Below are positions 60,001-63,000 of a stretch of 64,000 nucleotides of DNA, in pieces. Made by a program: the position numbers. The DNA comes from Escherichia coli. Its GTDB lineage: Bacteria > Pseudomonadota > Gammaproteobacteria > Enterobacterales > Enterobacteriaceae. The stretch is from NCBI RefSeq assembly GCF_017348835.2, contig NZ_CP071375.1, one strand, 5' to 3'. Position 1 is the stretch's first letter. Each line of letters opens with the position of its first letter.

Positions 60001-63000
60001 AAAGCAACGAAGACGCGGTGATCCGCCGTTGCCGTTATGAGCTTGGCGTGGAAATTACGCCTCCTGAATCTATCTATCCTGACTTTCGCTATCGCGCCAC
60101 CGATCCGAATGGCATTGTGGAAAATGAAGTGTGTCCGGTATTTGCCGCACGCACCACCAGTGCGTTACAGATCAACGATGATGAAGTGATGGATTATCAA
60201 TGGTGTGATTTAGCTGATGTATTACGCGGTATTGATGCCACGCCATGGGCGTTCAGTCCGTGGATGGTGATGCAGGCGACAAATCGCGAAGCCAGAATAC
60301 GATTATCTGCATTTACCCAGCTTAAATAAAAAACCCCGACATTTGCCGGGGTTGTGAGCATAACGTAATGCTTATTTCACCGGACGCATCGCCGGGAACA
60401 GAATAACGTCGCGGATGGTATGGCTGTTGGTGAACAGCATTACCATACGGTCGATGCCAATCCCCAGACCTGCTGTCGGCGGTAAGCCATGTTCCAGTGC
60501 GGTAACGTAATCTTCATCGTAGAACATCGCTTCGTCGTCACCTGCATCTTTCGCGGCAACCTGATCCAGGAAGCGCTGCGCCTGATCTTCCGCGTCATTC
60601 AGTTCGCTAAAGCCGTTACCGATTTCACGACCACCAATGAAGAACTCAAAGCGGTCTGTGATTTCCGGGTTAACGTCGTTACGACGCGCCAACGGAGAAA
60701 CTTCTGCCGGATATTCAGTAATGAAGGTCGGCTGAATCAGATGTGCTTCTGCCACTTCTTCGAAGATCTCGGTAACGATACGGCCCAGACCCCAGCTCTT
60801 CTCAACGTGGATGCCGATAGATTCAGCAATCGCTTTCGCAGAGTCGAAGTTGTCCAGATCCGCCATGTCGGTTTCCGGGCGATATTTCTTGATCGCTTCA
60901 CGCATGGTCAGTTTTTCGAACGGTTTACCGAAGTCCAGCGTCACGTCGCCGTAGGTCACTTCCGTCTTACCGAGAATATCCTGTGCCAGAGTACGGAACA
61001 GCGATTCGGTCAGCTCGATCAGATCTTTGTAATCTGCGTAAGCCATGTAGAGTTCCATCATGGTGAACTCTGGGTTATGACGTACGGAAATACCTTCGTT
61101 ACGGAAGTTACGGTTGATTTCGAATACACGCTCGAAGCCACCGACCACCAGACGCTTGAGGTACAGTTCCGGCGCGATACGCAGGTACATGTCGAGATCC
61201 AGCGCGTTATGGTGGGTGATAAACGGACGCGCAGCGGCACCGCCAGGGATCACCTGCATCATCGGCGTTTCAACTTCCATAAAGCCGCGGTTCACCATGA
61301 ACTGGCGAATACCAGAGAGGATCTGCGAGCGCACTTTAAAGGTGTTACGGGATTCATCGTTAGAGATGAGATCCAAATAACGCTGACGATAGCGCGCTTC
61401 CTGATCCTGCAAGCCGTGGAATTTATCCGGCAGCGGACGCAGTGCTTTGGTCAGTAGACGCAGCTCGGTACAGTGGATAGACAGTTCGCCGGTTTTGGTT
61501 TTGAACAGTTTACCTTTCGCGCCGAGGATGTCGCCGAGGTCCCATTTTTTGAACTGCTCGTTGTAAACGCCTTCCGGCAGATCGTCACGGGCAACGTACA
61601 GCTGAATGCGACCGCCAACGTCCTGCAGGGTAACGAAAGACGCTTTACCCATAATACGACGGGTCATCATGCGGCCAGCAACGGCGACTTCGATGTTCAG
61701 CGCTTCCAGTTCTTCGTTCTCTTTGCCGTCGAATTCTGCGTGCAATTGGTCAGAGGTATGATCGCGACGGAAATCGTTCGGGAAGGCAATCCCCTGCTCG
61801 CGCAGGTTCGCCAGCTTCTCACGACGCGTTTTCAGTTCATTGTTAAGATCGACTACCGCGTCAGCGCCCTGTGCGTGTTGTTCAGACATGTTGGTTCCTC
61901 ATAACCCTGCTTTCAAACTTGCTTCAATAAATTGATCCAGGCTGCCGTCCAGCACGGCCTGCGTGTTGCGGGTTTCTACCCCGGTGCGCAGATCTTTAAT
62001 GCGGGAGTCATCAAGGACATAAGAACGAATCTGGCTGCCCCAGCCGATGTCGGATTTGTTATCTTCCATCGCCTGTTTCTCGGCATTTTTCTTCTGCATC
62101 TCCAGTTCATAAAGCTTCGCTTTCATCTGCTTCATGGCCTGGTCTTTGTTCTTGTGCTGGGAACGGTCGTTCTGGCACTGGGTCACGATCCCGGTTGGGA
62201 TGTGAGTAATACGCACCGCAGATTCGGTACGGTTAACGTGCTGACCGCCCGCGCCGGACGCGCGATAAACGTCAATGCGCAGATCCGCCGGGTTGATTTC
62301 GATATCAATATCATCATCAACTTCCGGATAAACAAACGCAGAGCTGAACGACGTGTGGCGACGACCGCCGGAGTCAAACGGGCTTTTACGCACCAGGCGG
62401 TGAACGCCAGTTTCTGTACGCAGCCAGCCGTAAGCGTAATCGCCGGAGATTTTGATCGTCACGGATTTAATACCCGCCACTTCACCTTCCGACTCTTCGA
62501 TGATTTCAGTTTTGAAACCACGCGATTCTGCCCAGCGCAGATACATACGCTCAAGCATGCTCGCCCAGTCCTGTGCTTCCGTACCGCCAGACCCCGCCTG
62601 AATATCGAGGTAGCAGTCGGCACTGTCATATTCGCCAGAGAACATACGGCGGAACTCAAGCTGCGCCAGTTTTTCTTCCAGGGCGTCGAGTTCAGCAACG
62701 GCTTCGTTAAAGGTTTCTTCGTCGTCAGCTTCTACAGCCAGTTCCAGCAGACCAGAAACATCTTCCAGCCCCTGTTTCATTTGGTCGAGGGTGTCGACAA
62801 CGGCTTCGAGGGAGGAACGCTCTTTACCCAGCGCCTGTGCGCGTTCGGGTTCGTTCCAGACATCCGGCTGTTCCAGCTCGGCGTTTACTTCTTCCAGACG
62901 CTCTTTCTTGGCGTCGTAGTCAAAGATACCCCCTAAGAACGTCGGAGCGTTCCGTGAGGTCCTGAATGCGATTATTTACCGGATTAATTTCAAACATGGT

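Follow-up and report, generated by a model that had tools for sequence, protein, structure and literature searches.

The window analysed here, a 64 kb stretch of E. coli chromosome to which all positions refer, almost certainly contains the canonical site in E. coli prfB for programmed +1 ribosomal frameshifting, by means of which release factor 2 (RF2) would control its own synthesis. The site occupies positions 62919-62937 and lies on the minus strand. The cassette, which is the reverse complement of these positions, is CTTAGGGGGTATCTTTGAC, and reads from 62937 to 62919 as CTT AGG GGG TAT CTT TGA C. All of the sequence-level features that define a prfB recoding site are present in the window.

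Elements of the recoding site

The initial annotation placed CUU UGA C at codons 25-26, preceded by AGGGGG, and described a +1 frame continuing for 340 codons; it proposed translating frames 0 and +1 as a check, with the UGA at codon 26 as the deciding point. Translation bears this out exactly, and the only thing that the annotation omitted was the strand. Frame 0 starts at the ATG at 62997-62995 and runs for 25 codons (62923-62997, minus strand), ending with CTT for Leu25, and is then closed by TGA at 62922-62920. The +1 frame opens with GAC at 62921-62919 and continues for 340 sense codons, numbered 26 to 365, to a TGA stop at 61901-61899 (whole segment 61899-62921, minus strand).

Each of the expected elements was looked for in turn, all of them on the minus strand. 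An RF2-specific premature stop (TGA, never TAG) is expected near the 5' end of the gene, and is present as codon 26 (62920-62922). The purine-rich Shine-Dalgarno (SD)-like element, expected 3 nt before the CTT and 6 nt before the stop, is present as an internal AGGGGG at 62929-62934; its assignment as the frameshift stimulator is based on the sequence, on its predicted duplex with the anti-SD sequence and on its conservation. The 3-nt spacer between them is TAT (62926-62928), which encodes Tyr24 and would be the E-site codon during the ribosome pause. The CTT directly before the stop is also present, and the Leu25 codon (62925-62923) together with the T of the stop codon (62922) makes up the slippery run CTT-T (62922-62925), as identified from the sequence and the literature. 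Finally, the stop is followed directly by a C at 62919, giving the weak UGA-C context, and this same C is the third base of the GAC codon for Asp26.

The composite motif AGGGGGNNNCTTTGAC (AGGGGG-N3-CTTTGAC) was searched for throughout the window, allowing at most one mismatch. There is one match, compared to 0.02 expected by chance, and only 2 of 100 shuffled sequences contained any match. This lone match is located exactly at the junction of the two frames that encode RF2.

Pairing with the anti-SD sequence was assessed by scanning the mRNA against the 3' tail of 16S rRNA, the tail being taken from established knowledge, as the window contains no rRNA. AGGGGG(U) forms the strongest duplex of any 10-mer in the prfB mRNA (-10.7 kcal/mol), and ranks among the top 0.075% when every 10-mer of the window is considered. 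Folding of 101 nt at the site gave no significant stimulatory RNA structure (z = -1.71, 12 of 200 shuffles). A search of Rfam with 61500-64000 at E <= 1 returned no matches, which is expected given that the site is an unstructured linear motif. The lack of local structure and of an Rfam match is consistent with a linear signal that is read by the ribosome.

The joined product and its conservation

When codons 1-25 are joined to the +1 frame, the product is a protein of 365 amino acids. It matches the NCBIfam model for prfB, TIGR00020, with 525.9 bits (cut-off 370) over residues 12-362, while the models for RF1 and PrfH score below their respective cut-offs. The Pfam domains PCRF and RF-1 are both present, as are the tripeptide SPF by which RF2 recognises its codons (residues 205-207, 62384-62376, minus strand) and the catalytic GGQ (residues 250-252, 62249-62241, minus strand). 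Judged by these models and motifs, the host gene is prfB, encoding the class-I release factor 2, and is not that for RF1 or PrfH. The joined protein also matches the solved structure of E. coli RF2 (PDB 1gqe), as well as many ribosome complexes, over residues 1-365. There is a single substitution relative to 1gqe; residues 1-25 are identical, and both proteins read ...RGYL-DYD... across the junction. The +1 frame stays open as far as the natural C-terminus, and RF2 proteins encoded in a single frame align colinearly with the joined product over the junction.

In strain PE164, RefSeq annotates prfB as a two-piece join carrying the note "programmed frameshift", whose ends map to 62997 and 61899, with recJ upstream and lysS 9 nt downstream. 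The identification as the classic autoregulatory site of prfB, made in the initial annotation, finds agreement in TIGR00020, in the RefSeq label and in all of the elements by which the literature defines the site (PMC12421855). The initial annotation was also correct in saying that the gene is split by ORF callers: a mechanical ORF list contains only a 25-aa ORF (62920-62997) and one of 293 aa (61899-62780) that begins at the internal ATG 62780.

These are precisely the two ORFs that would be expected if there were two genes, namely an upstream ORF of 25 codons and a shorter RF2 starting from an internal codon such as ATG 62780. We consider this arrangement very improbable. Homology of the +1 frame to RF2 begins at the junction residue Asp26, 47 codons ahead of the first start codon in that frame. 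In addition, the frame-0 peptide is the conserved N-terminus of RF2 and can be aligned with the RF2 proteins of Neisseria and Sulfurovum, and the match to TIGR00020 crosses the junction.

Within E. coli, the prfB locus is present as a single copy in 5,425 of 5,426 complete genomes. Across a 108-nt stretch that begins at the start codon and extends beyond the site, 5,418 of the 5,425 genomes are at least 99% identical to the window, and strains PE164 and F2_81 match the larger region 61850-63100 with 100% identity. The region found no match in one of the 5,426 genomes, and one other match was on a record labelled as a plasmid; both are probably issues of assembly or labelling.

Conservation across more distant bacteria was examined by using the joined protein in a tblastn search of a plasmid and chromid collection, which includes many mislabelled chromosomes, and 12 distant loci were fetched. 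Ten of the 12 carry the complete cassette (SD-like element, 3-nt spacer and CTT TGA C) in the same place, namely those from Salmonella, Proteus, Aeromonas, Legionella, Acinetobacter, Ralstonia, Methylobacterium, Sinorhizobium, Listeria and Priestia. In these ten genera, from three phyla, the frame-0 ORF has 23-27 codons ending in CTT TGA C, the +1 frame has 340-353 codons, and the cassette is at an equivalent codon position of 24-28. CTTTGAC is invariant in 11 out of 11 loci (the ten plus the window), despite there being six codons for leucine. The SD-like hexamer fits RGGRGG in all 11, occurring as AGGGGG, CGGGGG, CGGAGG or AGGAGG, and the spacer is always 3 nt long with a sequence that varies (TAT, TGC, CAT, TCT). 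The other bacterial sites thus have CTT-TGA-C and the 3-nt spacing of the SD-like element in common with the window, and differ from it only in minor changes to the hexamer and the spacer codon. In Legionella adelaidensis (positions 406-417 of the fetched locus L005) the slippery-stop hexamer is present in tandem, as CTTTGA CTTTGA G; a ribosome that has shifted +1 at the first of these reads the other as GAC TTT GAG.

The cassette is absent from the remaining two loci, those of Neisseria and Sulfurovum, where a single frame encodes RF2. The 25-residue peptide from frame 0 aligns with the N-termini of both of these proteins, and the Neisseria protein is colinear across residues 25/26 (RGYLDYD in E. 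coli, RVYMDYQ in Neisseria). Given that the alignments to these single-frame proteins are unbroken over the junction, they provide independent confirmation of the join.

A published survey found the prfB frameshift in about 64% of 12,753 species/genomes, with a consensus close to AGGGGG, CTTT 3 nt downstream, TGA almost always as the stop and a conserved C after it; in Actinomycetota the frameshift site has been lost and RF2 is encoded in one frame (PMC12421855). Conservation of the cassette in our fetched loci, as judged from their sequences, agrees with this survey.

Origin of the frame break and the path of recoding

An obvious question for any interrupted gene is whether the break is a mutation or a sequencing error, so that prfB would be a pseudogene or an assembly artefact. 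Ordinary frame-disrupted pseudogenes do occur in the same window, for example the ETT2 genes sctN and yscQ, which are described as 'frameshifted' in PE164, and a 1-nt indel in the G5 run is sufficient to switch frames. The latter is seen in E. coli BH100 substr. MG2014 (NZ_CP024650.2, 3122832-3122938; positions 1301-1407 of the fetched locus L014), where AGGGGG is replaced by AGGGG (G5 to G4). This one-base deletion fuses the two frames into a single ORF of 365 codons with the junction RGIFDYD, and RefSeq gives no join for it. An exact match to the AGGGG variant is found in only 1 of 5,425 E. coli records, that of BH100 itself. Either the homopolymer was misassembled or RF2 autoregulation has been lost naturally in this strain. 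Against an accidental break, the identical interruption occurs in at least 5,418 of 5,425 complete E. coli genomes; ten distant genera from three phyla share both its codon position and the CTTTGAC; and the interruption is labelled as programmed in RefSeq and consists of a UGA, which is read by RF2 alone. Because of this conservation, a pseudogene or an error is effectively refuted, and we regard it as hardly credible.

Alternatively, slippage of RNA polymerase on the G5 or T3 run could produce an mRNA that is one base shorter, with no slippage by the ribosome. The BH100 sequence demonstrates that loss of one G from the G5 run leaves an uninterrupted frame of 365 codons. However, deletion of a G predicts ...RGIFDYD..., whereas the accepted E. 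coli RF2 is ...RGYLDYD..., and the single-frame ortholog from Neisseria has Y-M-D at these junction positions. Slippage during transcription would also have no need for an invariant TGA-C or for a spacing of exactly 3 nt, and published studies, both in vitro and in vivo, have located the event to the ribosome (PMC12421855). Transcriptional slippage is given next to no weight here. Least probable of all is decoding of the UGA within frame 0 by readthrough, with insertion of Trp or selenocysteine: UGA-C is a leaky stop context, but the frame-0 translation refutes readthrough as a route to RF2, since beyond the TGA it has 31 codons unlike RF2 and then a stop, while there is no significant SECIS-like structure downstream (z = -1.71) and no match in Rfam.

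We therefore return to programmed +1 frameshifting on the ribosome. RF2 is the only release factor that reads UGA. Initiation at the minus-strand ATG at 62997 would be followed by translation of 25 codons, after which CUU would occupy the P site and UGA-C the A site. UGA-C, as a poor stop read by RF2 only, would be decoded slowly when RF2 is scarce, causing the ribosome to pause. During this pause the AGGGGG located 3 nt before the CUU would base-pair with 16S rRNA at its 3' end and destabilise the E-site tRNA. The peptidyl-tRNA-Leu would then slip from CUU to the overlapping UUU, allowing GAC (Asp26) to enter the A site and the full RF2 of 365 amino acids to be made. When RF2 is abundant, termination at the UGA would instead yield a peptide of 25 residues, and the result would be negative feedback. 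None of the results obtained speaks against this reading.

The slippage event, its efficiency of roughly 20-50% by ribosome profiling and its response to RF2 are taken from literature on the identical E. coli sequence, and would apply here. CTTT is described as the slippery sequence, and the pause, SD:anti-SD pairing, E-site destabilisation and re-pairing from CUU to UUU have all been described, as has the role of the C that follows the UGA (PMC12421855). Ribosome profiling of the endogenous gene gave frameshifting of about 28% in K-12, 47% in the absence of RF3 and 21% with the Ala246 (B-type) RF2 (PMC5373646).

The 25-residue peptide from frame 0 is strongly conserved in enterobacteria. Its place within RF2 accounts fully for this conservation, and no support for a separate function was found in this analysis.

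The programmed +1 frameshift of prfB was reportedly described in E. coli K-12 by Craigen and Caskey in 1986, and it is reviewed in PMC12421855. The K-12 gene has the identical cassette at codons 25-26, the same layout of 25 plus 340 codons and the same recJ-prfB-lysS context. It differs from the gene studied here in the protein and not in the site: residue 246 is Thr in K-12 RF2, and in the window it is Ala (GCG, 62261-62259, minus strand). K-12 is peculiar in having the less active Thr246, while E. coli B and most other lineages carry the canonical Ala246 (PMC5373646). The presence of Ala246 therefore implies that the strain is not derived from K-12. Its autoregulatory set-point may be slightly below the K-12 figures. 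There is only a slim chance that the set-point of the Ala246 RF2 would be measurably unlike that of K-12, or that the 25-residue frame-0 product would have a function of its own.

Genomic setting and meaning for RF2 control

Directly downstream of prfB on the same strand is lysS (60372-61889, minus strand; an ORF that is also annotated in RefSeq), which encodes lysine-tRNA ligase. The sequence of the junction is TGAGGAACCAACATG. Only 9 nt separate the prfB stop from the lysS start, as TGA GGAACCAAC ATG (61890-61901, minus strand), and this gap carries a GAGGAA Shine-Dalgarno sequence that overlaps the prfB stop codon. The short spacing and the GAGGAA suggest that the two genes may be co-transcribed, and possibly that they are translationally coupled. 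If they are coupled, the prfB frameshift might also affect translation of lysS. The order prfB-lysS is found in Salmonella and Legionella as well.

On the upstream side, the recJ-prfB intergenic region contains a predicted hairpin of 13 bp, with one bulge and a GGUA loop (63038-63068, minus strand). It has a folding energy of -23.4 kcal/mol in an 81-nt context (z = -4.33), and none of 200 shuffled sequences was as stable. On the minus (coding) strand it is preceded by an A-run, and on the plus strand it is followed by a T-run; the terminator scan picked out the core of the hairpin on the plus strand together with this T-run. These features probably mark it as the terminator of recJ, or as one that is bidirectional or faces antisense. 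When 61800-63300 was scanned for promoters and terminators, no sigma-70 consensus was detected anywhere in the recJ-prfB spacer, including the part from the hairpin to the prfB ATG, and the overall counts were not above those in shuffled sequences.

The rest of the window is very similar to PE164, with 99.995% identity throughout. The only differences are at 4642, 23198 and 32911, and comprise two substitutions and one single-base indel. The indel at 32911 is an extra C in the window, located between ygeW and ygeV, and there is no difference from PE164 near prfB. A scan of the whole window against Rfam at the gathering thresholds detected tRNA-Gly alone. This tRNA-Gly(CCC) (25695-25768, minus strand) adjoins the ETT2 (E. 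coli type III secretion system 2) island, which occupies approximately 1-25700. Several ETT2 genes are frameshifted or truncated pseudogenes in PE164, including sctN (approximately 15507-16798) and the yscQ family gene (approximately 13259-14246). These frameshifts are unprogrammed, in contrast to that of prfB.

A second programmed frameshift is found within the ETT2 island, in a copy of IS1 (21417-22114, plus strand) with the overlapping frames insA (21417-21692) and insB' (21611-22114) and a -1 slippery motif A AAA AAC (A6C) at 21668-21674. The element is inserted in the gene for the ETT2 outer-membrane secretin (sctC/EscC family), which is annotated as two pseudogene pieces in PE164. Like prfB, IS1 insAB' relies on a short, linear slippery motif to join its two overlapping frames, and RefSeq likewise labels it as a 'programmed frameshift'. 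It differs in that the shift is -1 on A AAA AAC, without a stop codon in the A site and without feedback of the product on a stop. The IS1 frameshift sets the ratio of transposase to inhibitor, and is not a homeostat.

The prfB frameshift site is already known and ordinary, and it is handled correctly by current annotation pipelines. Its value is for annotation only: 62997-62923 and 62921-61899 on the minus strand should be joined as one RF2 of 365 amino acids, with no pseudogene flag, where a naive ORF caller would turn prfB into a 25-aa ORF and a truncated ORF of 293 aa. The finding raises no new question and, as far as can be judged from the DNA, confirms that the normal homeostat for RF2 has been retained in this strain.
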